Shown here: piece after piece, positions 56 to 40,353 of the stretch
Position numbering within the stretch: the first letter of the stretch is position 1
Layout of the letters: each line of letters starts with the position of its first letter
NCBI GenBank assembly: GCA_964510365.1
Contig: CAZEAR010000001.1
Coordinates: forward strand, 1-42,117
DNA from: an uncultured Dehalococcoidales bacterium
Lineage (GTDB): Bacteria; Chloroflexota; Dehalococcoidia; GIF9; UBA5629
Reading direction: 5' to 3'
DNA: 42,117 nucleotides
Made by a program: the position numbers and the translations under genes
Notes under the pieces: generated by a model
The model's database searches: none
The model's input: the letters and a program-made list of their open reading frames with translations, nothing else
Told to the model about the DNA's origin: nothing

Positions 56-196
56 ACCGGCGCGAGCTCGCTGGTACTTTCAAAAGCAATTGTCCGGGAA
101 ACAGATCTAGTCGGTTGCAATAGTGAAAATGTCGGGCTTTTTAAAAGAGGCTTCGGCGGGGAGTTAAAGATATGTTTAGGTATAGAGCCGGGATAA
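2..196 (+). CDS. 3' part of the junction-spanning FemAB/BioF2-like (GNAT-fold) acyl/aminoacyl-transferase gene that starts at 41509. Positions 2..55 duplicate 42064..42117; the unique continuation is 56..196
   Basis: The frame of 41509..42117 (203 codons, no stop) continues at position 56 as TGASSLVLSKAIVRETDLVGCNSENVGLFKRGFGGELKICLGIEPG, ending at TAA 194-196. It is absent from the ORF track only because the window cuts it. Confidence 0.6.
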   Translation, partial: DRHRDYYIFGASSREGQSTGASSLVLSKAIVRETDLVGCNSENVGLFKRGFGGELKICLGIEPG

Positions 197-885
197 TAGG
201 AGCAGGCCGAGTCGGAGTAGAATTCGAAGATTGTCATGCCAGGGCATATACGGAAATAGAAGCTACTGAGTTATCGGCGATCATTGATACAGATATTGAT
301 AAAGCGATCGCCGGAGCTAGTAAATGGAAAGTTCATGTAGCCGGATCTGAATACTGGCAAGTTGGTGAGCTCGGGCTTGATATTATCAGCATATGTACGC
401 CGCCACAAACGCATTGCCGTGTATTGAAGGATATGCTCCTGGCTAATCCCGGATTAAGAGCGATCTATTGTGAAAAGCCGATCGCTATTAAATTGAGCGA
501 AGCGCGTGAAATGGTAGAATTATGCAAAGCCAATAATATTATTCTTCAGGTCAATCATCAGCGGCGTTTCGGGATTCCGACATTTTTCTATAGCCGGGGA
601 ATATTCAATACCGGAACACATATGATCGATATGCTCAGGATCTTCTTCGGGGATCCGGTAGAAATAAAAAGGGATGAATTGAAATTTGAGCGGCTTACCG
701 TAAAGCTAATGTGTATCGATACTGATAAGCATATTTTTGAATTCAAAATACCAACAGATAACCTTATAAAAAGAGGAGTCGAGCACCTGGTCAATTGTAT
801 TGACAATGACCGTCAAAGTCTATCGAGTGGTGAAGAAGCATTGAAGGACCTGGAAGTAATATGGGAACTGAGAAAGAAATCTTAA
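172..885 (+). CDS. Gfo/Idh/MocA-family NAD(P)-dependent oxidoreductase (short form, 237 aa)
   Basis: N-terminal Rossmann motif GIIGAGRVG (GxGxxG) and the family-diagnostic EKP motif in IYCEKPIA. It lies inside the sugar cassette. Confidence 0.7.
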   Translation: MFRYRAGIIGAGRVGVEFEDCHARAYTEIEATELSAIIDTDIDKAIAGASKWKVHVAGSEYWQVGELGLDIISICTPPQTHCRVLKDMLLANPGLRAIYCEKPIAIKLSEAREMVELCKANNIILQVNHQRRFGIPTFFYSRGIFNTGTHMIDMLRIFFGDPVEIKRDELKFERLTVKLMCIDTDKHIFEFKIPTDNLIKRGVEHLVNCIDNDRQSLSSGEEALKDLEVIWELRKKS

Positions 886-1401: not shown

Positions 1402-2508
1402 ATGAATAAAGAAATCTTAAAAGAGATACAGCAAGTAATCAAAACGAATAAACTTTCAGGCTTCCGTGGTGATCTGGGATTAACCGAAGGCGGTCCATAT
1501 GTTCAAAGGCTCGAGCAGGCCTTTGTTGATTATTTCAAAGTAAAACATGCGATCGCATTTAATAGCGCGACGGCAGCATTGCATTCTGTTGTACCAGGAA
1601 ATACGATTGTTTCACCTTTTAGTTTTGTATCGTCCGCTTCTTGCGTATTACCTCATATTCCTATATTTGCTGATATAAATCCAATGACATATTGTGTATC
1701 TGTTGATTCAATTTTAAGTAAATTCAGATTGGATGCAGATATAAGAGCAATAATGCCGGTACATTTATTCGGCGGCGCGGCCGAAATGCTGAATATAAAA
1801 TGTATTGCCGAAGATTTCAAAATCATGGTAATTGAAGATGCAGCGCAGGCGATCGGCAGCAGGTACTACGGTAAATACCTGGGGACTTTTGGTGATTGCG
1901 GCGTTTTTTCATTTAATCAGAGCAAGCAGATCTCTTGTGGTGAAGGTGGTATGCTGATAACCAATAATGATGAAATAGCCTACAAAGCAAAGCTGAAGCG
2001 CAATCATGGCGAAGTCCTGGATCCTGATGCCCGGATTCCCGGATATAATTACCGAATGACCGAGATCGAATCGATTATTGCTTATCACCGTTTCTTGGAA
2101 CTGGACAAAATTAAATCCGAACGTCAGAAGATGGTTTTATATTTCAAGTCACTTCTTGATCAAATTCCGGGAATTTATCCGCAATGGATCAATCCAGATG
2201 TCGATTATAATTGGTATGTCTATTCTTTTACGAGTGATTTCAACAATCATGTAATAGCGGAAGCTATGACTCAGCGCGGCATACCTCTTCGCGGCGGCTA
2301 TATAACACAGCCTCTAAATACTTTGCCTATATTTGAATATCAGCCATGTATTAATTGCGAAGCGATTTGGCATGATAAAATTGTAGTAACAGATGTAATT
2401 AGTAAAAATATAACTGCAATAGATTATTTTGTCGATACGCTTGAATTGGTAATACAGGAATTAAAACATGGCAAAACTAACATCGGTACAAAGGAAAAGG
2501 CTGCCTGA
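1402..2508 (+). CDS. DegT/DnrJ/EryC1/StrS-family PLP-dependent nucleotide-sugar aminotransferase (PseC-like by context)
   Basis: VKHAIAFNSATAAL, FSFNQSKQISCGEGGMLITNN (Schiff-base Lys context, compare FSFHAIKPITTAEGG in PseC) and NYRMTEIESII. Confidence 0.85.
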   Translation: MNKEILKEIQQVIKTNKLSGFRGDLGLTEGGPYVQRLEQAFVDYFKVKHAIAFNSATAALHSVVPGNTIVSPFSFVSSASCVLPHIPIFADINPMTYCVSVDSILSKFRLDADIRAIMPVHLFGGAAEMLNIKCIAEDFKIMVIEDAAQAIGSRYYGKYLGTFGDCGVFSFNQSKQISCGEGGMLITNNDEIAYKAKLKRNHGEVLDPDARIPGYNYRMTEIESIIAYHRFLELDKIKSERQKMVLYFKSLLDQIPGIYPQWINPDVDYNWYVYSFTSDFNNHVIAEAMTQRGIPLRGGYITQPLNTLPIFEYQPCINCEAIWHDKIVVTDVISKNITAIDYFVDTLELVIQELKHGKTNIGTKEKAA

Positions 2509-4348: not shown

Positions 4349-6141
4349 TGAGCAATAAGATCCTATTAAACGGTAAACCTATTCTCATTGATGGGAATGT
4401 TACAAAGGCTTATATCAATCCCTGGTCAACAAAACTTTCAATCGGATCCCAGGACTTCGCAGATTATCAACCGGCTTCCGTCCGGGAATATAAGGATGCT
4501 CGCGGCGGTATAGGTAAGGAATCTGAAGTAGAGGATACCGATCGGGTCGCCTGGTCCGAAAGCATGGAGCTCACGAAAGAAGGGTACTGGACTCTCGGCG
4601 CGCTCGTAACCCAGCTTGACGATTTCGAAACCCCGCCTTTGCTTATGATCGACTTCGAAGGCTATACCTATGTCTGGGGAAACAGCAAATCGGAATATAA
4701 CAACGCCGGATCCATGGCAACCGCAGATCCGAGTCCGCTGGCTAACCCGACAGATGTAATAGTCTTTCAGGATACAACCGATACATACCTGATCTACTGC
4801 AACGGAGCAGACATCCGGTACTGTACCGTTGGCTTCGGCGGGAGCCAGGACTGGGGAGCTTTATCCACGAGCAACGTCAAGTATATGTGCGCCTATGACA
4901 AAAGACTTCTCGGGGTGAACAGTACCGGTACCACGATCTATTATTCGGACCGGGATGATTGCGATAGTGCCGGCGGTGGCGCGATGGATTCCTTCAGCAT
5001 ATCCGGCCCATGGAGCGCGGCATATGATCTGTGGGCTGGAAGGGCTTTCACTTCCGATGATGATGTGATCTACATGGAAACAGATCTCGGGCTGGTTGTA
5101 ATCGATTTCTGGACTCGCGTTGCTTACCTCACCGATGTCACATGGAGCAAGACAGCCTACGCCATGCGGGGATGCTCGTGGAACGCTTCGGTTTATGCCA
5201 GCAACGGACCGGGCATTACAAAGGCGAGCCAGGGTACTTTTACTGATACCTGGGGACCGGATGCGGATGATGGTCTGCCGAGCGGATATACCGGCTATAT
5301 CTATGACATGAAAGGGCTCACCCACTGGCTGATCATCGCTGTAAGTGGCGGTACCTATTCATCGATATTGAAGAGACATAGTACTGTCGGTGGCTGGCAT
5401 CAGATCTATAGCTCCAGCAGTAATATACGTTGCATTCACCATTCGACTTTGACTTCGCCTAACCGGCTTTATTTCGGCGATGGGAATTATATCAAGTATT
5501 GCGACTTCCCGGATGTGACAAAAGATATCACTAAAGTTTCCGGATTCGATTTTGCAGCTCAGGGAGAGATCATATTACCCAGGCTGTCGAAGATTACCAC
5601 GCTTCCGAAGATCGCCGTAATGGTTGCCGCGACAACCAAAGATTGTGATATTGCCACTGAGAATCACAATGAAAAGGTCGAAATATATCTGCGCGTGAAT
5701 GAGACAGACAGCTGGGGATCCGCCGTGGGGACATTTTCTACCGATGGCAGGCCTACGCCTATCAAACTGGGGACAACTGCCGGCAAGGGTACCGCCTTCT
5801 ATGATGCTCAAATGAAACTGATATTCTATCGCGGTACAGCAGACGTGGAAGTTTCACCGGTTATTAAATCCATATGTCTTTATTTCAAGCCGAATCCCGA
5901 GCCGGTAATGTCCTATACATTCAACCTTGCAGCGCGAGGTCCAGAAGCGGCTCGGGTTATCACAAATCTTGAAACGGCTAAAAACTCGGGAACGCTGGTT
6001 AGCTTTTATCCTACAGGCGATACACGACAGACTCCCCGCTGGGTCGGAATAGAGTCCATGCCTTCGCGACAGGATCTCGATAATATCGGGAAGGAAGAGA
6101 AAATAACCGTTGTCGTTTCCGAGGTAGTCTATGCCAGTTAA
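4348..6141 (+). CDS. Putative tail (tubular/nozzle-like) structural protein
   Basis: 597 aa, translationally coupled to 3065..4348. No enzymatic motifs recognised; function inferred from position only. Confidence 0.45.
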   Translation: MSNKILLNGKPILIDGNVTKAYINPWSTKLSIGSQDFADYQPASVREYKDARGGIGKESEVEDTDRVAWSESMELTKEGYWTLGALVTQLDDFETPPLLMIDFEGYTYVWGNSKSEYNNAGSMATADPSPLANPTDVIVFQDTTDTYLIYCNGADIRYCTVGFGGSQDWGALSTSNVKYMCAYDKRLLGVNSTGTTIYYSDRDDCDSAGGGAMDSFSISGPWSAAYDLWAGRAFTSDDDVIYMETDLGLVVIDFWTRVAYLTDVTWSKTAYAMRGCSWNASVYASNGPGITKASQGTFTDTWGPDADDGLPSGYTGYIYDMKGLTHWLIIAVSGGTYSSILKRHSTVGGWHQIYSSSSNIRCIHHSTLTSPNRLYFGDGNYIKYCDFPDVTKDITKVSGFDFAAQGEIILPRLSKITTLPKIAVMVAATTKDCDIATENHNEKVEIYLRVNETDSWGSAVGTFSTDGRPTPIKLGTTAGKGTAFYDAQMKLIFYRGTADVEVSPVIKSICLYFKPNPEPVMSYTFNLAARGPEAARVITNLETAKNSGTLVSFYPTGDTRQTPRWVGIESMPSRQDLDNIGKEEKITVVVSEVVYAS

Positions 6142-6499
6142 AGAAATTGTCGGCTCAGATCTCGAAAAAAAAGTGTATGCCTGGCTTTTAAAAAGAGGTT
6201 ATCGGCCGAACATAGACTTCGCTTTTCAAACTCAACTTATCGGCCTCCGCGGTGTGCGCGAGCTCGGGGATGCGGTGGCGGATTTCCTGATCTTCAAACA
6301 AAGGCTGGTATGGCGCGTCCAGGGAGAATACTGGCATACCGGATCTCAGGAAGAAGCTCGGGATAAAATCCAGAAGGAACGGCTCGAAGGACTCGGGTAT
6401 ACCGTAATAGATCTGTGGGAACGAGATCTTACGAACAGGTTTGAATATACCATGAAACAGGCAATACAGGGAGTGCAATTGAAGCGCGATGGGTACTAG
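6131..6499 (+). CDS. Vsr/DUF559-like PD-(D/E)XK endonuclease (possible homing-type nuclease)
   Basis: ADFLIFKQRLVWRVQGEYWHT...RDKIQKERLEGLGYTVIDLWE parallels the E. coli Vsr pattern PDFV...IFxHGCFWH...RD...L...GWxVLxVWE. It is embedded between tail genes and overlaps both neighbours. Confidence 0.6.
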   Translation: MPVKEIVGSDLEKKVYAWLLKRGYRPNIDFAFQTQLIGLRGVRELGDAVADFLIFKQRLVWRVQGEYWHTGSQEEARDKIQKERLEGLGYTVIDLWERDLTNRFEYTMKQAIQGVQLKRDGY

Positions 6500-28941: not shown

Positions 28942-31134
28942 ATGGGACTTTTAAGTAATTGGGCTAATAAAATTTCAAGCGCCTTCAGGCCGCGGCGGCC
29001 GAAAATTGCCACAGCTACGCCGCGAGCTCAGAGTCTGGCTTCTTCATTTGCTTCGCGGCGGCCACAAAGCGCGGCTGTCCAAAACTGGCGTAGAACGGCT
29101 ACTGCTTCCCGGCCGGGATTAGGATCTTCATTTTCAAATTGGAGTAGAAAATTAAGAACTAACCAGGCTCCGCGGATAGCGACAGTAACTAAAAGAGGTC
29201 AGGCTTTAGCACAGCAATTCGCTATTCAACAGCCGCAGAGCGCAGCAGTTCAAAGTTGGAAAAGGACATCAGGCCGCATAGGCGGCATAACCGCGACAGC
29301 GCAGGGAGCTCAGGCCAGGCCAGGGACCATGGCGCGAGTCGCTTTATCTTCCCTGGGCGATGCTTTAACATTCGGTAAAAAGCCGAAGATCGCGCAATCC
29401 ACTCCTGAAGCGGAAGCATTGGCTTTTCAATATGGGCTTGAAAATCCGTTTAGTCCAGCCGTTCAAAATTGGGCCAGGACTCAGAAACCAGGCGCGATCG
29501 CCGATTATACTCGCAGGGAATTGCAATCAAACGCATTATTGAATCAACTATTGGCGCAAAAGCAGGCTTTAGCCGGAGTTCAACAATTCTGGCCGCGTAA
29601 ATATGGTGAAACTGCAGGCGGGATCCCGAAGTTATATCAACCGGATCGGCCATTTGCTACGATCGATGAATTTAAAGAAAATCTCGCGCAGAAATTCCCG
29701 AATATCTTCGGCGAAAGCGGAGAGGTCCGGCCGGAAGCTCAGGCAGCAGGAACGGAAGCATATTGGAAGCCACAACAGGAGATCTTCGGCGGATCTGAAA
29801 CAGGATCTTCTTTGATGAATACGATTCAGAATTGGATGCAAAAGAGAGAAGGCCAGGCTCCGGGCCAGGCTCCGGGCCAGCAACCAGGCCAGGCAGCGGC
29901 ACAGGGATTTCAACCGTTTTTTAAGCCTGGCGCGGTACAGGCAAAGTCGCAGAAAGAAGAAACGGGCGTACCGGCTTATGCTCAACCGCCGCAGCCTGGA
30001 CAGGAAAATAAGATGTGGTGGGAAGGCGGCACATTGCAGGGACCGCCGACACCGGAGCAATTCAATACGCCGGAATATGTCGAAGGATATATGAACGTAT
30101 TAATCAATCCTGATCTGAAGCCGGATTTATATGATAACAACGGCAGGCTGAATGATGAAGGCATGTCAGCTATAACGAATGCCTGGGATCTTTTCACAGC
30201 CGATGCCGCTGAAGGGTATCTAACACCGGATAAAATCAGCGCGAATGAGCCGCTTCACGAGCAATTTAATATGAATATGCTACTCCGGGACCGGTATGAT
30301 CAAAATTGGTTTGAATCAATGCAAGACACCGGGCTTAGCACCGTTGTAAACCAGGTCGCATCCCTGGATCCGAGCAAATTACCGGCGGAGATCTCACAGG
30401 AACGGCTCGATGCCATGCAAAGAGGACCGGACTTCGCGACACTCTATGATATGGGATATCGATCGAAAGCATACCAGGACGAAGCGAGTCAGATCATACA
30501 AAATGCACAGGAGTTTCTGGAAGGTTCGGATGCTCAGATAATTTATGATCCGGCTGAATTAGATTCGTTGACATACGCCAATATCGAAGCATTAAAACAG
30601 GATATCGCTCAAACGAGTCCTGCCGACTGGCAAAGGATCGCTGAGGATGGCGGGCAGATAAATCTCAGGACCGAATTCTATGAATTCAATGAGCGCGGGG
30701 AAGCGATAAATCGGGCCTGGTGGGAAGTTGATTATCCGCCGCAGAGTGAAATGAGTAAAAGTGAAAAAGAGCTTTACATGGACCGGCAGCGATTTTACTA
30801 TGAATGGTATTGGAGCGATGAATCGATCGAACAAAGGCGTAAAGAACGCGAAGAATCATACCAATACTATCACGAAAAAGATCTCGAAGGATGGGGAGAT
30901 TACTACGATCTGCTTGAAACAATGAAATTATACGGAGAGCAGAATGATTATTGGAGTGCTCCGGGTAAATTCGAAGAGTTACGCCGGAAATGGGAAACTA
31001 CCGGCGGGGATCTTTCCTGGGAAGATTGGCTGAAACAATTCGACTTCGAAGGTGAGTGGGCCAGTTTGACACCGGAAGAAAGAGGCGAACGTAAATATAT
31101 ATACAGTCCGCGAATGCAGCGGCTGAATTACTAA
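28942..31134 (+). CDS. Large virion-associated (internal/ejection-type?) protein with three N-terminal sequence repeats and a Q/P/G-rich linker
   Basis: 730 aa. The repeat pattern is P(K/R)IA..T.....LA..(F/Y).....P.S.AVQ.W.RT. The linker is GQAPGQAPGQQPGQAAAQG. It lies between the portal and scaffold genes. Confidence 0.45.
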   Translation: MGLLSNWANKISSAFRPRRPKIATATPRAQSLASSFASRRPQSAAVQNWRRTATASRPGLGSSFSNWSRKLRTNQAPRIATVTKRGQALAQQFAIQQPQSAAVQSWKRTSGRIGGITATAQGAQARPGTMARVALSSLGDALTFGKKPKIAQSTPEAEALAFQYGLENPFSPAVQNWARTQKPGAIADYTRRELQSNALLNQLLAQKQALAGVQQFWPRKYGETAGGIPKLYQPDRPFATIDEFKENLAQKFPNIFGESGEVRPEAQAAGTEAYWKPQQEIFGGSETGSSLMNTIQNWMQKREGQAPGQAPGQQPGQAAAQGFQPFFKPGAVQAKSQKEETGVPAYAQPPQPGQENKMWWEGGTLQGPPTPEQFNTPEYVEGYMNVLINPDLKPDLYDNNGRLNDEGMSAITNAWDLFTADAAEGYLTPDKISANEPLHEQFNMNMLLRDRYDQNWFESMQDTGLSTVVNQVASLDPSKLPAEISQERLDAMQRGPDFATLYDMGYRSKAYQDEASQIIQNAQEFLEGSDAQIIYDPAELDSLTYANIEALKQDIAQTSPADWQRIAEDGGQINLRTEFYEFNERGEAINRAWWEVDYPPQSEMSKSEKELYMDRQRFYYEWYWSDESIEQRRKEREESYQYYHEKDLEGWGDYYDLLETMKLYGEQNDYWSAPGKFEELRRKWETTGGDLSWEDWLKQFDFEGEWASLTPEERGERKYIYSPRMQRLNY

Positions 31135-35352: not shown

Positions 35353-36225
35353 ATGCCGACAGGTATCACTGGTTATTCAACCTCTGATCTTGAAAAGATG
35401 CAGAGAACGGTGATAGCGCAGGCTAGATTTACTCGGGAGCACAAGGGCTGTATGACCGCTGTTTCAGAGCGTTTTGATCTCGAAGCAGGCCAAAGCACTC
35501 TTACAGTCCCGAAGCTAAGTGCTTTCGATGATGCTCAGGATCTGCAAGACGGCGTGGATATGATCCAATCGCAGCAGATCGCGAACGCATATACCGATAT
35601 CACAACTGCAGAAATAGGCGTAAAAGCAATCATAACCGATAAATTAATTCGGCAGATGAATGAATCGGTATTTCGAATGTGCGGGAAATTACTCGGCGAT
35701 TCCATGAATAGAAAAATCGAGAGGGATGGGCTGGATCTGTGTGATGGCTTCTCGAATTCTCTTGGTGCCGCCGGTACTACAATGACAACCGGGTATCTAT
35801 CCGCGGCTATCACTCAACTTTACGGCCAGAGTGAACCGGCTCCTGATCCGATCGCCTACGTTGCACATCCATACCAGGTGAAAAAGATCATGGATTCGGT
35901 ATCGGTCGTAGGAACCTATCCCCTGCCTGAAGGGTTTTCTGCTCAATTACTGAAAAATTACTGGCGCGGGACCTTCGCGATTTTCGGGACTCCGGTATTA
36001 AGCAATGGTTTAATCACCGTTGATGGACTGGATGATGCGAAAGGCGCGGTCCTTTCTAAGAGTGCCATAGGCTATGTAGTGAGCAAGGATGCTTATACGG
36101 AACGGCAGAGGGATGCCAGTTTGAGAGCGTGGGAGATCGTCCATGTTCAGGATTCCGATTGGGTGGAACTGGATGATAATTACGGTCGGGAAATGTATTT
36201 CGACTGTGCCACTCCTACATCATAA
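35353..36225 (+). CDS. Major capsid protein (HK97-fold type)
   Basis: 290 aa with an AAGGGGGA Shine-Dalgarno. Positioned after the scaffold gene. The N-terminal MPTGITGYSTSDLEKMQRTVIAQARFT is typical of small HK97-like capsid proteins. Confidence 0.7.
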   Translation: MPTGITGYSTSDLEKMQRTVIAQARFTREHKGCMTAVSERFDLEAGQSTLTVPKLSAFDDAQDLQDGVDMIQSQQIANAYTDITTAEIGVKAIITDKLIRQMNESVFRMCGKLLGDSMNRKIERDGLDLCDGFSNSLGAAGTTMTTGYLSAAITQLYGQSEPAPDPIAYVAHPYQVKKIMDSVSVVGTYPLPEGFSAQLLKNYWRGTFAIFGTPVLSNGLITVDGLDDAKGAVLSKSAIGYVVSKDAYTERQRDASLRAWEIVHVQDSDWVELDDNYGREMYFDCATPTS

Positions 36226-36251: not shown

Positions 36252-36716
36252 ATGCCGGAAATAAAAGTTACTCCACAGCAGGAGAAAGAACTTAAATCAA
36301 AAGGGTACGCGATTAAACCTGCTTACGATGAAGTGAGCAACCGCAGATATTATTGGGATCCGCGCAAGGACGAAAATGGAAATGCTATGGGATGGACCAG
36401 GCCTTTACCTGGCGATACATTGCGGATGAATTATTATCTACGGAAAGGGTTAAAATTAGAGGATCCTGAAGGTAATACCGCTCCGCCGCCAGGTTATTTC
36501 CGCAGGCGGACTCCGGCAATGCCGGTCCCGCAAGATACGGAAGGCCTGGCTGAAGTAAGCGTTACACATGATGAAGTTCCGCCACAGAATAAAAAGGATG
36601 CCGTTCTAAGGTGTCCGTTATGTGAGAAGGAGTTTCCTGATTCTGAAACGCTGTTGAAACACATGCGAAGGCATGAATCCCGGAAAAACAAATCTAAAAA
36701 GGGGGGTAAAAAATAA
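36252..36716 (+). CDS. Head-module protein with a C-terminal classical C2H2 zinc finger and a basic tail
   Basis: LRCPLCEKEFPDSETLLKHMRRH fits C-X2-C-X3-F-X5-L-X2-H-X3-H exactly, followed by ESRKNKSKKGGKK. Confidence 0.6.
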   Translation: MPEIKVTPQQEKELKSKGYAIKPAYDEVSNRRYYWDPRKDENGNAMGWTRPLPGDTLRMNYYLRKGLKLEDPEGNTAPPPGYFRRRTPAMPVPQDTEGLAEVSVTHDEVPPQNKKDAVLRCPLCEKEFPDSETLLKHMRRHESRKNKSKKGGKK

Positions 36717-37534
36717 TGTTCCCTACTACGCTTTATATCAGCGAAGAGCAGATCCGAACTGAAAAAGCAACACGGGGCGACATACCTCTCGGAACGCGCG
36801 GCGTTACTCCTGATGGCAGAGTTTTTCGGTGGGCTCAGGCAGGTGGAACGGCATTAAAAGCTCACAGGCTTATGATCCCTGTAGCTCAGGGACCATGGAG
36901 CACAGCTACAGATATCGCGCTGGCTACCGGTGTTACAGCCGGTGCGACTGGTGTTAAAATCTATCTGGGAGCTACCGATACCGAAGCTACCCGGCTGGTT
37001 GCGGATTTCTATAAAGACGGTTATATGATCGTACCTTCCACGGACGAAGATTATAACCAGATGGCTCCTATTCATTCGAATCCGGCCCTGGCTTCAAATA
37101 CCGCGCTGAATTCGGCTAACTGGTTTTACTTCAAAAATCCGCTGGCGAAAGCCGTTGCGACTTCAACCAGTTTACCGAAGTTTGTACCTAATCCTTATAA
37201 ATTCGTCCAGGTACTTACCGATAACAGAGGTATGCCACTCGGCGTTACTCCGATCGCAGTTACAGCTAATTACTTCTTCTGGCTCCAGACATGGGGTCCG
37301 GCACTTGTAAAAGCTGATACAGGAGCTCAGTCCTGTGCCGATCAACAGCCTGGATGGTTTGTTGTGGCGGCTACAGGCGGAACCGGTGCTATATGTATGC
37401 CCAGTACAAATGTCAGCATGTCATACGACACCGACTCCGGTGGAGCGATGGCCCTGGGTGCTATCGGTAATCTCATTACCGCACCGGCAGCCGACACGTT
37501 CCATGCACTTGTAGAACTGCGATTATCACCTTAA
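36716..37534 (+). CDS. Putative head-associated structural protein (decoration/cement candidate)
   Basis: 272 aa, T/A/G-rich, ATGT-coupled to the previous gene. Last gene before the sugar cassette. The call rests on position only. Confidence 0.4.
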   Translation: MFPTTLYISEEQIRTEKATRGDIPLGTRGVTPDGRVFRWAQAGGTALKAHRLMIPVAQGPWSTATDIALATGVTAGATGVKIYLGATDTEATRLVADFYKDGYMIVPSTDEDYNQMAPIHSNPALASNTALNSANWFYFKNPLAKAVATSTSLPKFVPNPYKFVQVLTDNRGMPLGVTPIAVTANYFFWLQTWGPALVKADTGAQSCADQQPGWFVVAATGGTGAICMPSTNVSMSYDTDSGGAMALGAIGNLITAPAADTFHALVELRLSP

Positions 37535-37607: not shown

Positions 37608-38849
37608 ATGGAGAAGTCTGCAAAGGGCGTGAAAACGTCCACAGGAAAAACTACACCTATTCCTGAAGCCTTGCCACCTAACAATATAATCATCCTCGGC
37701 ATGGGATCCACGCGCACAGAATGTCCCTTCGGTGAGTCCGGCGTTGAGATATGGGGAGTCAACAACGGATACCGGCAATCGAAAGATATGGGCGGGAAGA
37801 TCCATAAACTTCTGATAGCTCACCGGGGACAGGAGCACGATTATATGGAAGATCCTATCTTCGACTGGGAAGAGCTCAATAAACTGATCGATACTGGCGT
37901 TGAAATACTCACTTTATTCGATCTTCCGGAACTGAAGAGCTATAAAAAGATCGATTACCAGGCGATGGCTTCCCACTTTAACACAGATTATTTCTCGGAC
38001 TCGATCGCGTATATGCTCGCCTATGCCATATTTATCAATACCGAGAAGATCAACGATACCGGACAGCTTAAACTCATACAGCCACTCAGGATCCGGATGT
38101 ATGGCGTGGACATGCTCACAAAGGATGAATATGCCACCGAAAGAGGGGGGATCGAGTATTTTGTAGCTGTGGCGAAGACTGTCGGGATAGATTTCTGGAA
38201 TCATCCATTCTCGGCGGTTTGCAGGACCGACACCGGTATGCCTTACGGCTTCTTCCAGCTTGATAAATCGCTGATAGATCCGCACAACATTATGGAACGG
38301 CAGAAGACAGCTGCAGGCCTGAAAGAGCTCCTGGATGAAGGCGCGATCGATGAAGAGGATTACAATGAAATGATAGCCGGCTTGCTGAAACTTGAAACCG
38401 GTATCGAGCTCAAAGATGCCACTATGAACGATTTCGAACTGATGATGGCATGGCGATCGGATCCGGATATCTATCAGGGGTTTTACCAGCAGAATCAACC
38501 ACTCACCTATGAAGAACATTCCCAGTGGTTGCAATCCCGGCGCAACTGGTACCAGTACATCATATGGTACAAAGGTCGCCGGATCGGCGTTGTTTCCGTT
38601 GGACAGCTGGATCACTGGAACCCCGAGATCGGCTTTTATATCGGTGAAAAATCCCTGTGGGACCAGGGAATAGGTACCAACGCCGTCAAAGCTATCATGG
38701 ATCAGCTGAAGAGGGAAGGGAAGGAATATTGCCATACAACGGTTTTGAAGAGTAATGAACGCTCCATAAATCTTCTGAAAAAACTGGGATTCCGGCGCGG
38801 ATCCGAAGCGCGTCCCAGCGAGGTATGGATGTGGAAAAAGCTGTCTTAA
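37608..38849 (+). CDS. Two-domain protein: an N-terminal sialyltransferase/Maf(DUF115)-like candidate glycosyltransferase domain (37608-38423) fused to a C-terminal PseH-like GNAT N-acetyltransferase (38424-38846)
   Basis: GNAT part: MNDFELMMAWRSDP...RRIGVVSVGQL...IGFYIGEKSLWDQGIGTNAVKAIMD...LKSNERSINLLKKLGF. N-terminal part: IIILGMGSTR...IWGVNNGY...DSIAYMLAYAIF...IRMYGVDM resembles the GNGPS...N...SG.YM...AI...GID layout of Cst-II/Maf-type enzymes (weak, by eye). Confidence 0.6.
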   Translation: MEKSAKGVKTSTGKTTPIPEALPPNNIIILGMGSTRTECPFGESGVEIWGVNNGYRQSKDMGGKIHKLLIAHRGQEHDYMEDPIFDWEELNKLIDTGVEILTLFDLPELKSYKKIDYQAMASHFNTDYFSDSIAYMLAYAIFINTEKINDTGQLKLIQPLRIRMYGVDMLTKDEYATERGGIEYFVAVAKTVGIDFWNHPFSAVCRTDTGMPYGFFQLDKSLIDPHNIMERQKTAAGLKELLDEGAIDEEDYNEMIAGLLKLETGIELKDATMNDFELMMAWRSDPDIYQGFYQQNQPLTYEEHSQWLQSRRNWYQYIIWYKGRRIGVVSVGQLDHWNPEIGFYIGEKSLWDQGIGTNAVKAIMDQLKREGKEYCHTTVLKSNERSINLLKKLGFRRGSEARPSEVWMWKKLS

Positions 38850-39652
38850 TCACCGGCGGTACCGGATCTCTGGGTCGGGAAATAGTTAAACAGCTTCTTG
38901 AGTCCGGTTGCGAATCGATCCGGATCCTTTCCAGGAATGAAGCGAACCAGGTGATCATGCAACGTGAATTCAACAGTCCTTATTTACGCTTTTTCATCGG
39001 CGATATCCGGGATAAAGATCGACTGTGGAGATCCATGAAAAATGTCGATATCGTGATCCATACCGCGGCATTGAAGCATGTACCGGTATGTGAATACAAT
39101 CCTATCGAAGCCGTGAAGACTAACATCATGGGAGCGGTAAATATTGTAGAAGCTGCCCTGGATCGCAATATTGAAAAAGTGATGGCTATATCTTCAGATA
39201 AAGCGGTAAACCCGATCAATATATACGGTGCTACAAAGTTCGCTATGGAGAAATTATTCATTGATGCGAATGTATATGGCGGTAAGTTTTCTTGTGTCAG
39301 GATGGGGAATCTGGAAGGAAGTTCAGGAAGCGTTATACCGCTCTTCAAAGAGCAAGCTGAAAATGGAGAAGTTACAATGACCGATCCGAATATGCGGCGT
39401 TTATATTTGAAAATAGATGAAGCGGCAAGGTTTATATTGAACTGCATTCGGATAATGGAAGGCGGGGAAATATTCGTGCCGGAAATGCAGGAGATACCTC
39501 TTATTGAAACAGTGGCAAATGCTATCGGTGATAAGCCGGTGACTGTAAAAATCATCGGCAAAAGAGCCGGAGAGAAGCTGTTTGAATGTCCTTTTAATGA
39601 GGATGAATTTAACAGGATAAAGCGAATCGAAGGGGGGTATATCATAAAATGA
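38825..39652 (+). CDS. pseB: UDP-N-acetylglucosamine 4,6-dehydratase (inverting), PseB/FlaA1-type
   Basis: ITGGTGSLG, RFFIGDIRD, HTAALKHVPVCEYNPIEAVKTNIMGAVN, SSDKAVNPINIYGATK, GGEIFVP and AGEKL are collinear with H. pylori FlaA1 as recalled. The product is shorter (275 aa). Confidence 0.85.
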   Translation: MDVEKAVLITGGTGSLGREIVKQLLESGCESIRILSRNEANQVIMQREFNSPYLRFFIGDIRDKDRLWRSMKNVDIVIHTAALKHVPVCEYNPIEAVKTNIMGAVNIVEAALDRNIEKVMAISSDKAVNPINIYGATKFAMEKLFIDANVYGGKFSCVRMGNLEGSSGSVIPLFKEQAENGEVTMTDPNMRRLYLKIDEAARFILNCIRIMEGGEIFVPEMQEIPLIETVANAIGDKPVTVKIIGKRAGEKLFECPFNEDEFNRIKRIEGGYIIK

Positions 39653-40353
39653 TTATTGCAGAGATAGGGCAAAACCATATGGGGTCGATGTGGCTTGCGG
39701 AGCATCTTATTTTGCAGGCAAAAGATAATGGGGCTGACTTGGTTAAATTCCAGCTTTATGATTCCGAGAAGCTATACGGAGAAAAACAGGAAACAGAATT
39801 GAGCTTTGAGCAAGCAAAGCATTTATTTAACTTCGGCAAAAAAGCGGGGATTGAAATATTCTTTTCTGTATTTGATGAACTTCGGGTTCAATGGTGTGAG
39901 AATATAGGAGTGAAGCGATATAAAATAGCTGCTCGTAACGAAGATAAAAATCTATGGGATATTGTTGATAAAACAGAAAAACCTACCATAATTTCGTATG
40001 ATCCTGTTTTTGATAAATATGGTTGGCCTGATAAATGGGAAAGTCTTTATTGTGTTAGTGAATATCCAGCAAAATCGAAAAATATTAAATTTGAGGCTGG
40101 TGATTTTGAAGATACAGGAGATAGTCTGGGTTCAGGTGACGGCAGGGGTGAATATTGGAGAAGATATGAAGGTTTTTCAGATCATACAATAGGTCTTGAT
40201 TTCGCCATGATTGCGCTTTCGCGCGGAGCGCGGATAATTGAAAAGCATTTTGCTATAACGCATGAAATAGGCATTGATGCGCCCTGGTCCATGACACCGG
40301 ACGAGCTTCGGGAATTAAAAACTTTTGAAAGGAAGGTACAGGAAGTATTATGA
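39649..40353 (+). CDS. NeuB-family nonulosonic acid synthase (PseI-like), TIM-barrel domain only
   Basis: IIAEIGQNHMGS, GADLVKFQLY, YKIAARN, YCVSEYPA, GFSDHTIG and IIEKHF. It lacks the C-terminal SAF domain and carries a G/D-rich insertion (FEDTGDSLGSGDGRGEYW). Confidence 0.75.
   Translation: MIIAEIGQNHMGSMWLAEHLILQAKDNGADLVKFQLYDSEKLYGEKQETELSFEQAKHLFNFGKKAGIEIFFSVFDELRVQWCENIGVKRYKIAARNEDKNLWDIVDKTEKPTIISYDPVFDKYGWPDKWESLYCVSEYPAKSKNIKFEAGDFEDTGDSLGSGDGRGEYWRRYEGFSDHTIGLDFAMIALSRGARIIEKHFAITHEIGIDAPWSMTPDELRELKTFERKVQEVL

Follow-up and report, generated by a model that had tools for sequence, protein, structure and literature searches.

The 42,117 nt stretch of DNA analysed here over its full length (the window; contig CAZEAR010000001.1 of GenBank assembly GCA_964510365.1, filed under an uncultured Dehalococcoidales bacterium) encodes a protein of 413 aa whose N-terminal domain represents a very large and unnamed protein family, and comparison of sequence profiles indicates that this family is distantly but significantly related to the bacterial sialyltransferases of glycosyltransferase family 42 (GT42). 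The domain is encoded between capsid genes and a putative pathway for a nonulosonic acid (NulO), a position which suggests that it is probably the enzyme attaching that sugar, perhaps to the virus particle. More specifically, we consider it probable that the domain is a cytidine monophosphate (CMP)-ulosonic acid transferase resembling those of GT42 and the Maf proteins, in a minimal, single-domain form. The window begins and ends with a 55 nt direct repeat (positions 1–55 and 42063–42117), and is therefore taken to be a circularly assembled complete genome.

Domain organization of the 413-residue protein

The open reading frame (ORF) is preceded by a purine-rich, AGGGAG-like ribosome-binding site upstream of its start at position 37608, and an identical protein is on record (P0001). 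Its parts are as follows.

37608 to 38849, forward strand: whole ORF, comprising the sialyltransferase-like domain, a helical linker and a GNAT domain (ATG to stop, 413 aa)
37608 to 37679 (the 72 nt before 37680), forward strand: N-terminal extension, residues 1–24, probably disordered (predicted local distance difference test score, pLDDT, 53–60)
37680 to 38252, forward strand: predicted GT42/DUF115-like catalytic core, residues 25–215 (family profile, hhalign, conservation, AlphaFold2 model, Foldseek)
38253 to 38399, forward strand: helical linker, residues 216–264 (model helices 220–264; SHOCT-like motif 238–259)
38400 to 38849, forward strand: GNAT N-acetyltransferase domain, residues 265–413 (Acetyltransf_3; PDB 3eo4)

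With an alignment of 50 sequences as input, AlphaFold2 gave a confident model (mean pLDDT 88.3, predicted template modelling score 0.73) in which the N-terminal domain is a single Rossmann-like α/β domain with a strand at residues 25–30, a glycine loop, a helix at 34–38, a strand at 46–51, a helix at 132–143 and a strand at 160–165. An earlier note on this DNA, made from the sequence alone, had guessed at a strand with a glycine loop followed by a helix and later elements, and the model bears this out; the motif strings quoted there are also present as stated, namely NNIIILGMGSTR (residues 25–36), EIWGVNNGY (47–55), DSIAYMLAYAI (131–141) and RIRMYGVDM (161–169). The same note gave the N-terminal domain 272 residues. 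It is indeed a separate domain, but its extent was overestimated, the core covering approximately residues 25–215 and residue 272 (position 38423) falling a few residues inside the GNAT domain. Landmarks of the core are a G-x-G-(P/S)-(S/T) loop (residues 31–35), W49 and N52, a helix from S130 to A140, G166-V-D168, Y175, E178 and E183. Close homologues begin near residue 25 of the window protein, with MKDIIILGMG, and residues 1–24 are absent from them, while the same helical tail that forms the linker closes the free-standing homologues. The SHOCT match in the linker is below threshold (Pfam E value 1.2e-4, 22.2 bits against a cut-off of 27), and beyond it the N-terminal 272 residues gave no match in Pfam, PHROGs, NCBIfam or, by phmmer, the sequences of the PDB.

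The C-terminal part is a GNAT domain, as had been noted (residues 265–409, Pfam Acetyltransf_3, 8e-20), but its description as PseH-like was too strong: the PseH equivalog model TIGR03585 scored 41 bits, below its cut-off of 93.1, and among solved structures the best match is MJ1062, a protein that is itself uncharacterised (PDB 3eo4, 1.4e-30), with PseH (4xpk) at only 1.4e-3. Judged by sequence, a PseH-like identity of the fused GNAT is no more than plausible. A second protein, P0051 (397 aa, 49% identity in the N-terminal domain), has the same architecture of N-terminal domain and GNAT.

Relationship to GT42 sialyltransferases

A first search with the domain returned 49 homologues, all of them free-standing and 181–283 aa in length. 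When a profile of the close homologues was compared with 1.84 billion representative proteins, 3,164 clusters were matched at E <= 1e-3; the family thus comprises at least 3,164 clusters at 50% identity, and many of its members are cores of about 180 aa. The window domain was then represented together with 149 diverse members in an alignment (A2), each of these members having been found by the first profile at E <= 5e-22 and being 21–52% identical to the window domain. Among all 177,635 distinct PDB sequences, the A2 profile matched GT42 sialyltransferases alone: Cst-II with E values of 1.2e-8 to 1.7e-6 (31–38 bits, several entries), Cst-I (2p2v) with 3.1e-5 and a lipooligosaccharide (LOS) α-2,3-sialyltransferase (9c08) with 1.5e-3, the next entry, which is unrelated, being at 0.23. 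The matches to Cst-II consist of two stretches in the same order, from the G-loop to strand 4 and then YF...YMCAVAIALGYKEIYLSGIDFY, and in a shuffling control Cst-II scored 34 bits as against a maximum of 21 bits among 2,000 shuffled copies.

For comparison of profile with profile, 294 GT42 proteins were gathered from Cst-II (query sequence checked against 1RO7) and 37 of them were aligned (A3). Alignment of A2 with A3 by hhalign gave a probability of 94.7% and an E value of 6.2e-8 over 135 columns, with similar figures in a repeat run, and extended over residues 22–178 of the window protein and 2–165 of Cst-II. The residues paired were G31-M32-G33-S34-T35 with G8-N9-G10-P11-S12, N52 with N31, Y135-M136 with Y135-M136, G166 with G152, D168 with D154 and Y175 with Y162, so that the donor-site motifs that mark out GT42 (the GNGPS loop, Asn31, the TSG..YM.A.A helix, G-I-D154 and Tyr162) have their counterparts, save that Asn9 of the loop is not kept. 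In the reverse direction, a GT42 hidden Markov model (HMM) compared with 6,771 six-frame ORFs from all fetched loci gave 22 matches at E <= 10, of which 21 were to family ORFs. The order of motifs shared with Cst-II and DUF115 proteins had been pointed out in the earlier note as a weak similarity seen by eye; hhalign pairs all four motifs and Y175/Y162 besides, at the level of the family profile the similarity to GT42 is significant in the PDB search, and the reciprocal HMM matches family ORFs almost exclusively. As a separate observation, a non-family ORF (L022, 3258–3956) was matched by the GT42 HMM with an E value of 0.002, in a locus that also has a family member and a NeuB gene.

The GT42 link emerged only with the deeper family alignment. 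A profile of the 50 close homologues found no match in the PDB, and hhalign of the shallow alignment against the single Cst-II sequence gave a probability of 15% on the first motif alone. Against PF06002 (CST-I) the window protein gave no match even at an E value of 1, and against PF01973 likewise none, the gathering score being reached in neither case; among the 150 members of A2 there were weak Pfam matches to CST-I in three (best E value 0.034) and to MptE-like/DUF115 in two (best 0.038). Several true GT42 proteins themselves bear both the PF06002 and the PF01973 label. By those families' own thresholds, the domain is a member of neither PF06002 nor PF01973; on the evidence of the profile comparisons it belongs to the GT42/DUF115 superfamily, in which GT42 is nearest to it by sequence.

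Conserved residues and distribution of the family

Conservation in the family is highest in the columns of the four motif elements. None of the 50 close homologues departs from N52, A140, G166 or D168, and in the 150 diverse representatives the residues of the window protein are widely retained: W49 in 134/140 and N52 in 121/140; Y135 in 126/148, M136 in 127/149 and A140 in 147/149, with A138 also kept; G166 in 144/148 and D168 in 115/148; and Y175 in 113/149 and E183 in 143/149, together with W185, G193, S202 and Y213. The consensus of the first motif is G-x-G-P-S/T. At column 178 there is Glu in 104 and Gln in 25 of 149 sequences, and at column 72 His in 81 and Asp in 60 of 146.

Members are seen, as it looks, almost only in viral sequence. 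When 185,579 species were scanned, each represented by a single genome, there were only two matches, both on short contigs of metagenome-assembled genomes, and for this reason the family looks virus-specific. Among the deposited phage genomes (50,697 records) there was one match, at 27% identity, in Microcystis phage Mvi-Yong1342-1 (L006, PP496355.1, 34781–35584). This homologue is annotated, probably wrongly, as a 'type 11 methyltransferase', and the phage might serve as an experimental system.

Apart from the GNAT fusions of the window protein and P0051, three distant members, P0140 (L007, 5287–6885), P0141 and P0148, are fused to a GT2 glycosyltransferase. Fusions of both kinds may be read as 'Rosetta-stone' evidence that the N-terminal domain works in the same glycan pathway as its partners.

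Predicted nonulosonic acid genes of the window

Downstream of the ORF, and continuing across the junction of the circular genome, lie the following genes.

38825 to 39652, forward strand: PseB-like uridine diphosphate N-acetylglucosamine 4,6-dehydratase, 275 aa (Polysacc_synt_2, 1.2e-85; TIGR03589, 319 bits, cut-off 408)
39649 to 40353, forward strand: NeuB/PseI-like nonulosonic acid synthase, 234 aa (NeuB, 8.5e-30; PseI model 2.6e-31 and NeuB model 8.3e-31, both below cut-offs)
40350 to 40835, forward strand: HIT-family nucleotide hydrolase/transferase (HIT, 9.1e-11)
40832 to 41512, forward strand: CMP-sugar cytidylyltransferase (CTP_transf_3, 4.7e-24; KdsB-type and PseF models below cut-offs)
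41509 to 42117, forward strand: weakly FemAB-like ORF, 249 aa, which crosses the circular junction and ends at about 196 (FemAB, E value 2.9e-5, 23.5 bits, cut-off 24)
172 to 885, forward strand: GFO_IDH_MocA oxidoreductase (PF01408, 1.2e-17)
1402 to 2508, forward strand: DegT/PseC-type sugar aminotransferase (PF01041, 2.5e-68)

A 177 aa protein without assignment is encoded between the GFO/IDH/MocA and DegT genes, and the ORFs after DegT have no assigned function. The PseB-like protein spans positions 4–279 of the 324 of its model, and the NeuB-like protein has 234 aa compared with about 327 in the PseI/NeuB models; as both are short and below the equivalog cut-offs, the exact sugar is uncertain. 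No other candidate NulO transferase was found among the scanned ORFs of the window. The FemAB-like ORF is kept after the cytidylyltransferase gene in relatives, and its product might attach an aminoacyl or acyl group to the sugar.

In line with the earlier suggestion that the phage carries both the donor pathway and the transferase, NeuB and cytidylyltransferase genes are linked to the domain, not only in the window but in every close relative for which the flanking sequence is long enough. In each of these relatives the order is capsid, 272 aa protein, domain, and then NeuB, cytidylyltransferase, GFO and DegT, and relatives at 31–63% identity keep it irrespective of whether the domain is free-standing or is fused, to the GNAT in P0051 and to a DNA methylase in P0070. 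PseB and the GNAT are missing from a clade at about 40% identity, which has a GT2 glycosyltransferase gene beside the domain. Of 48 distant viral loci (21–30% identity), 12 have NeuB or cytidylyltransferase within the fetched flanks; linkage to a NulO cluster of the kind known for Maf genes is accordingly found in the window, in all those close relatives and in 12/48 distant members.

No gene for a PseG-type hydrolase of uridine diphosphate (UDP)-sugars was found in the cluster in Pfam and NCBIfam scans. Since, in addition, the domain is fused to the GNAT of the pathway, the domain might itself be a pathway enzyme, that is, a nucleotide-sugar hydrolase or remodeller that fills the PseG/NeuC-type step, or a mere CMP-NulO hydrolase; hydrolysis of the donor is a side activity of GT42 enzymes. 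We regard this as improbable. The fold is not GT-B, the substrate of PseG is a UDP-sugar whereas the motifs correspond to the CMP-sugar site in Cst-II, and the family is present in phages without PseB and GNAT (L002, L004) or without any sugar genes (L008). For the missing step there is also an alternative candidate in the HIT-family hydrolase, which may be a non-orthologous replacement. The HIT gene is also found in L010 and is absent from L001 and L011.

Position next to capsid genes

On its upstream side the ORF follows, in order, genes for a scaffold-like protein, the major capsid protein, a 154 aa zinc-finger-like protein and a 272 aa protein. Two of the products are candidate acceptors.

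35353 to 36225, forward strand: major capsid protein, candidate acceptor (Phage_capsid_4, E value 1.1e-5, 26.3 bits, cut-off 27; PHROG major head protein, 2e-3)
36716 to 37534, forward strand: 272 aa all-β, Ala/Thr-rich protein, candidate virion-surface protein or acceptor (AlphaFold2; no Pfam or PHROG match)

In relatives, too, the major capsid gene is consistently located two genes upstream of the domain. For the 272 aa protein, which has 58 homologues, AlphaFold2 predicted an all-β fold (pLDDT 85, predicted template modelling score 0.84) with a single disordered loop, SMSYDTDSGG; fold matches were weak (best E value 0.06) and were to tailspike N-terminal domains, the base of the phi29 head fibre and a capsid chain of crAss001. 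The protein had been described in the earlier note as rich in Thr, Ser and Ala, which holds for Ala (14%) and Thr (11%), Ser making up just 5%. The 154 aa protein (36252–36716) has a C2H2 zinc-finger match (PF00096, E value 9.4e-6), an unusual finding for the head module of a phage.

The association with head genes extends to the distant loci, in which 147 proteins are encoded within two genes of the domain. Fifteen of these are capsid proteins (Phage_capsid_4, eight; P22 coat, five; HK97-type, two) and nine are connector, head-completion or adaptor proteins, alongside five NeuB, three CTP_transf_3 and two Epimerase_2 proteins, and PHROG head-protein matches occur also in loci without sugar genes. 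Members with no sugar genes in their flanks, often near head genes, are those of L008 (8001–8570), L021, L025–L028, L038, L039, L041, L049 and L066. That the gene recurrently adjoins capsid genes of unrelated families is a pointer to a head protein, and the position of the gene directly after head genes in many phage lineages favours a virion protein as the acceptor. With gene position as the only guide to it, we put forward a virion acceptor tentatively, as a possibility.

A transferase of the same chemistry could instead be directed at the host, with lipopolysaccharide (LPS) or LOS, capsule, S-layer, flagellin or pilin being modified so as, for example, to block superinfection or change a receptor. 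The closest solved relatives sialylate LOS, and flagellin is the substrate of Maf enzymes; there are known phage enzymes that modify host NulOs, and members without a sugar pathway of their own could act on host glycans using host donors. Set against these points, the gene lies inside the head-to-tail structural block, beside capsid genes of three families, which is an unusual place for surface-conversion genes, and the domain has neither a membrane anchor nor a signal sequence. There is no integrase among the window ORFs scanned, so that lysogenic conversion is not indicated. We consider a host acceptor unlikely, if still worth bearing in mind.

Among the other scanned ORFs (6131–35328), recognizable genes are those for a DnaB helicase, Rep-O, RusA, ArdC-N and DUF559, the last being a DUF559/Vsr-like endonuclease-fold protein at 6131–6499 (E value 2e-6). 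A 730 aa protein encoded at 28942–31134, between a portal-like gene and a gene for a 1,115 aa virion-protein-like product, contains in its N-terminal part three repeats, each of about 60 aa (…P(K/R)IA…(S/P)(A/P)AVQ(N/S)W(R/K/A)RT…) and a Gln/Pro/Ala-rich APGQ stretch, and is without family assignment.

Observations that weigh against a virion glycosyltransferase

A number of our observations speak against a transferase that acts on virion proteins. Taken by itself, the window protein matches none of the GT42 or DUF115 models, and the GT42 link consequently depends on the family profile. In Cst-II, a lid of about 22 residues carries the catalytic His188, to which His202 of Cst-I is equivalent (PMC4202792). 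The confident alignment stops at residue 178, and the lid and His188 have no counterpart; nor do the family columns include an insertion of the length of the lid or a conserved His in the His188 region. Tyr156 of Cst-II is likewise not kept in the family. In Foldseek comparison of the model with the PDB, no GT42 or Maf chain is among the top 50 matches, and thiamin pyrophosphokinase and MptE rank higher. One member, P0070 (L010, 8001–9506), is fused to an N6/N4 DNA methylase domain, and the homologue of Mvi-Yong1342-1 is among early genes, just upstream of the small terminase gene and with no sugar genes nearby. Approximately two thirds of the distant members have no recognizable sugar-pathway gene nearby. 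Finally, the position of the gene in a late operon, from which the acceptor is deduced, could reflect only the timing of expression.

The fold searches bear on a further possibility for the domain, a pyrophosphokinase of the MptE or thiamin type, or some other nucleotide-binding enzyme, that has nothing but its fold in common with glycosyltransferases. The top PDB matches were the thiamin pyrophosphokinases 3K94 and 3LM8 (E value 1.6e-3) and the archaeal MptE 6-hydroxymethyl-dihydropterin pyrophosphokinase 8sd5 (1.3e-2), with Foldseek probabilities of 0.98–1.0 (0.98 for 8sd5) and template modelling (TM) scores of 0.35–0.44; none is significant, all E values being above 1e-3. In the viral structure library, uncharacterised phage proteins were followed by a viral DUF115 protein (3.3e-4) and by 'MptE-like' phage proteins (8e-3 to 6e-2), with TM scores of only 0.3–0.45. 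The single DNA methylase fusion and the early-gene location in the Microcystis phage would also be in keeping with an enzyme of this kind. We nevertheless judge a pyrophosphokinase very unlikely, because the sequence profile finds GT42 only: three different GT42 enzymes were retrieved from the PDB, and no pyrophosphokinase, MptE included, even at an E value of 10. The likeness is one of general α/β fold, with low TM scores, no sequence-profile signal, no β-sandwich domain, and chemistry and gene context that are dissimilar, there being no pterin or thiamin genes nearby. Nor do the columns conserved in the family include the Asp-rich motifs GDxDS and KDxTD of such pyrophosphokinases.

Two further identities were considered and rejected. 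The earlier note had proposed that the model be compared by Foldseek with GT42, DUF115 and PseG, and had named PseG or an unrelated fold as the assignment that would tell against a transferase; the outcome of these checks supports the note's proposal. The comparison returned weak MptE/DUF115 and thiamin pyrophosphokinase matches and none to PseG or GT-B; searches of Pfam, NCBIfam, PDB sequences and folds likewise gave no PseG or GT-B match, the domain is modelled as a single α/β domain and not as the two-Rossmann GT-B of PseG, and the sequence profile points to GT42 alone. A role in DNA hypermodification, prompted by the methylase fusion, was rejected as the scanned window ORFs include no hydroxymethylase, TET-type or other hypermodification enzyme.

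The lack of a counterpart to His188, taken with the constant closeness of the gene to head genes, could also mean that the domain is a dead or structural derivative, such as a sugar-binding or head-assembly factor. This we find scarcely credible, as the GT2 and GNAT domains to which it is fused look active, and as the donor-site motifs are strongly conserved in 150 representatives at 21–52% identity, which argues for a retained active site.

A possible catalytic base and a proposed mechanism

For an active transferase, the residues that are conserved in the family in place of the His are E178, E183 and H/D72. If the Cst-II lid is deleted in an alignment made by hand, E178-x4-E183 would lie over His188-x4-Asp193; H/D72, we suggest, would lie within one residue of the acceptor-site Asn51. 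Asn9 of Cst-II is not kept, and is Met in the window protein. An acidic base would fit the data for Maf better than those for Cst-II. The PF01973 domain of Maf has a modified GT-A fold with a donor site resembling that of Cst-II, its essential residues are Asp, Ser and Asp/Glu/Asn residues, and Maf enzymes O-glycosylate Ser/Thr of flagellin, a structural protein that polymerises, with pseudaminic acid (Pse), legionaminic acid (Leg), N-acetylneuraminic acid (Neu5Ac) or 3-deoxy-d-manno-oct-2-ulosonic acid (Kdo) (10.1101/2020.06.03.131540).

Taken as a whole, the observations are in our judgement best explained by a CMP-NulO transferase, which we consider probable, with a virion protein tentatively favoured as its acceptor. 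From the homology, the conserved motifs and the gene linkage that we observe, we infer the donor, the chemistry, the catalytic base and the acceptor as follows. The cluster would make a CMP-activated 5,7-diamino-type NulO, as the family assignments of its products suggest, by way of the PseB-like dehydratase, the DegT aminotransferase, the fused GNAT, the NeuB-like synthase and the cytidylyltransferase. By analogy with Cst-II and Maf, the domain would bind the CMP-NulO through the G31-x-G33 loop, N52, the S130–A140 helix, G166-x-D168 and Y175, and would transfer the sugar with inversion to a hydroxyl group of the acceptor, with E178, E183 or H72 replacing Cst-II His188 as the catalytic base. 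Fusion to the GNAT would tie this last step physically to the pathway. In phages with a GT2 enzyme, a sugar that this enzyme adds may serve as the acceptor, as happens when LOS is sialylated; in those with none, such as that of the window, direct O-glycosylation of Ser/Thr in the manner of Maf would be the simplest model. Phages without a pathway of their own could use host CMP-Kdo or host CMP-NulO, a possibility suggested by the acceptance of Kdo and Neu5Ac by Maf enzymes. The favoured acceptor would be the major capsid protein or the adjacent 272 aa β-protein, and the product a particle that bears a sialic-acid-like sugar.

Comparison with known systems and significance

GT42 (PF06002; Campylobacter jejuni Cst-II 1RO7, 1RO8 and 2DRJ, Cst-I 2P2V, Pasteurellaceae 9C08) thus supplies the sole PDB proteins matched by the family profile. 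The N-terminal 155 residues align in the same order, with the GxGPS loop, an Asn behind strand 2, an S/T...YM.A.A helix leading to G-x-D, and a Tyr equivalent to Tyr162; the phage domain, as modelled, and the GT42 enzymes each consist of one Rossmann-like domain, and in both groups the genes are linked to a donor pathway with NeuB and a cytidylyltransferase. The phage core, however, has about 190 residues compared with about 260, lacks the lid of about 22 residues and an aligned His188/His202, and has conserved residues (E178, E183 and H/D72) for which no role in GT42 has been described. Moreover, the phage family is almost exclusively viral and adjoins capsid genes, not LOS genes.

The Maf proteins (5MU5 of M. 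magneticum, and those of C. botulinum and G. kaustophilus) belong to the same superfamily, and weak Foldseek matches link the model to DUF115/MptE-like proteins. Maf genes, too, lie beside a donor pathway, and Maf relies on acidic and Ser residues, with no described His base; for direct glycosylation of protein Maf would be the best functional analogy. Maf proteins have several times the length and possess helical flanking domains, thought to bind flagellin, while the phage domain is small (a core of about 190 residues with a short helical tail) and is free-standing or fused to a GNAT or GT2. Among the scanned window ORFs there was no flagellin gene, and a large multidomain Maf architecture was not found.

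Glycosylation of phage particles as such has a precedent in the mycobacteriophages, in which tail proteins are reportedly modified and the enzymes are said to be of other glycosyltransferase families, using hexose-type sugars, and not to be GT42-like or concerned with NulOs. The likeness to the window lies in glycosyltransferases that are encoded by the phage and act on capsid proteins. Such modification of capsid proteins by phage glycosyltransferases is attributed to Freeman et al. (2023) in the account of PMC12691614. Our literature searches found no report of NulO glycosylation of phage capsids or virions. The kind of enzyme, a GT42/Maf-like ulosonic acid transferase, is already known; what appears to be new is a very large unannotated family, apparently virus-specific, with a core that is without lid and His and with a systematic position next to capsid genes.

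It is interesting to speculate on what the family may mean for its phages. Should the domain be an active transferase, phages would encode a complete donor pathway, and the enzyme that uses its product, inside the head-gene block. We can at most suggest, as a tentative generalization, that this unnamed family consists of minimal sialyltransferase-like enzymes, working with an acidic base, which are encoded beside the major capsid gene of many unrelated lineages of tailed phages and coat phage heads, or another surface protein of the virion, with Pse/Leg-type sugars or, in phages that lack a pathway, host Kdo, and that this would be a widespread and hitherto unrecognised trait of environmental phages. 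If true, this would be the first indication of sialic-acid-like sugars on bacteriophage particles, and such virion sugars could bear on how stable the particles are, on how they adhere, and on how hosts, grazers or the immune system recognise them. A stripped-down GT42/Maf catalytic domain of about 190 residues could reveal the minimal machinery of CMP-ulosonic acid transfer and might find use in protein glyco-engineering. For a very large uncharacterised phage family that is missed by current Pfam, PHROG and NCBIfam models, the proposal provides a testable function.

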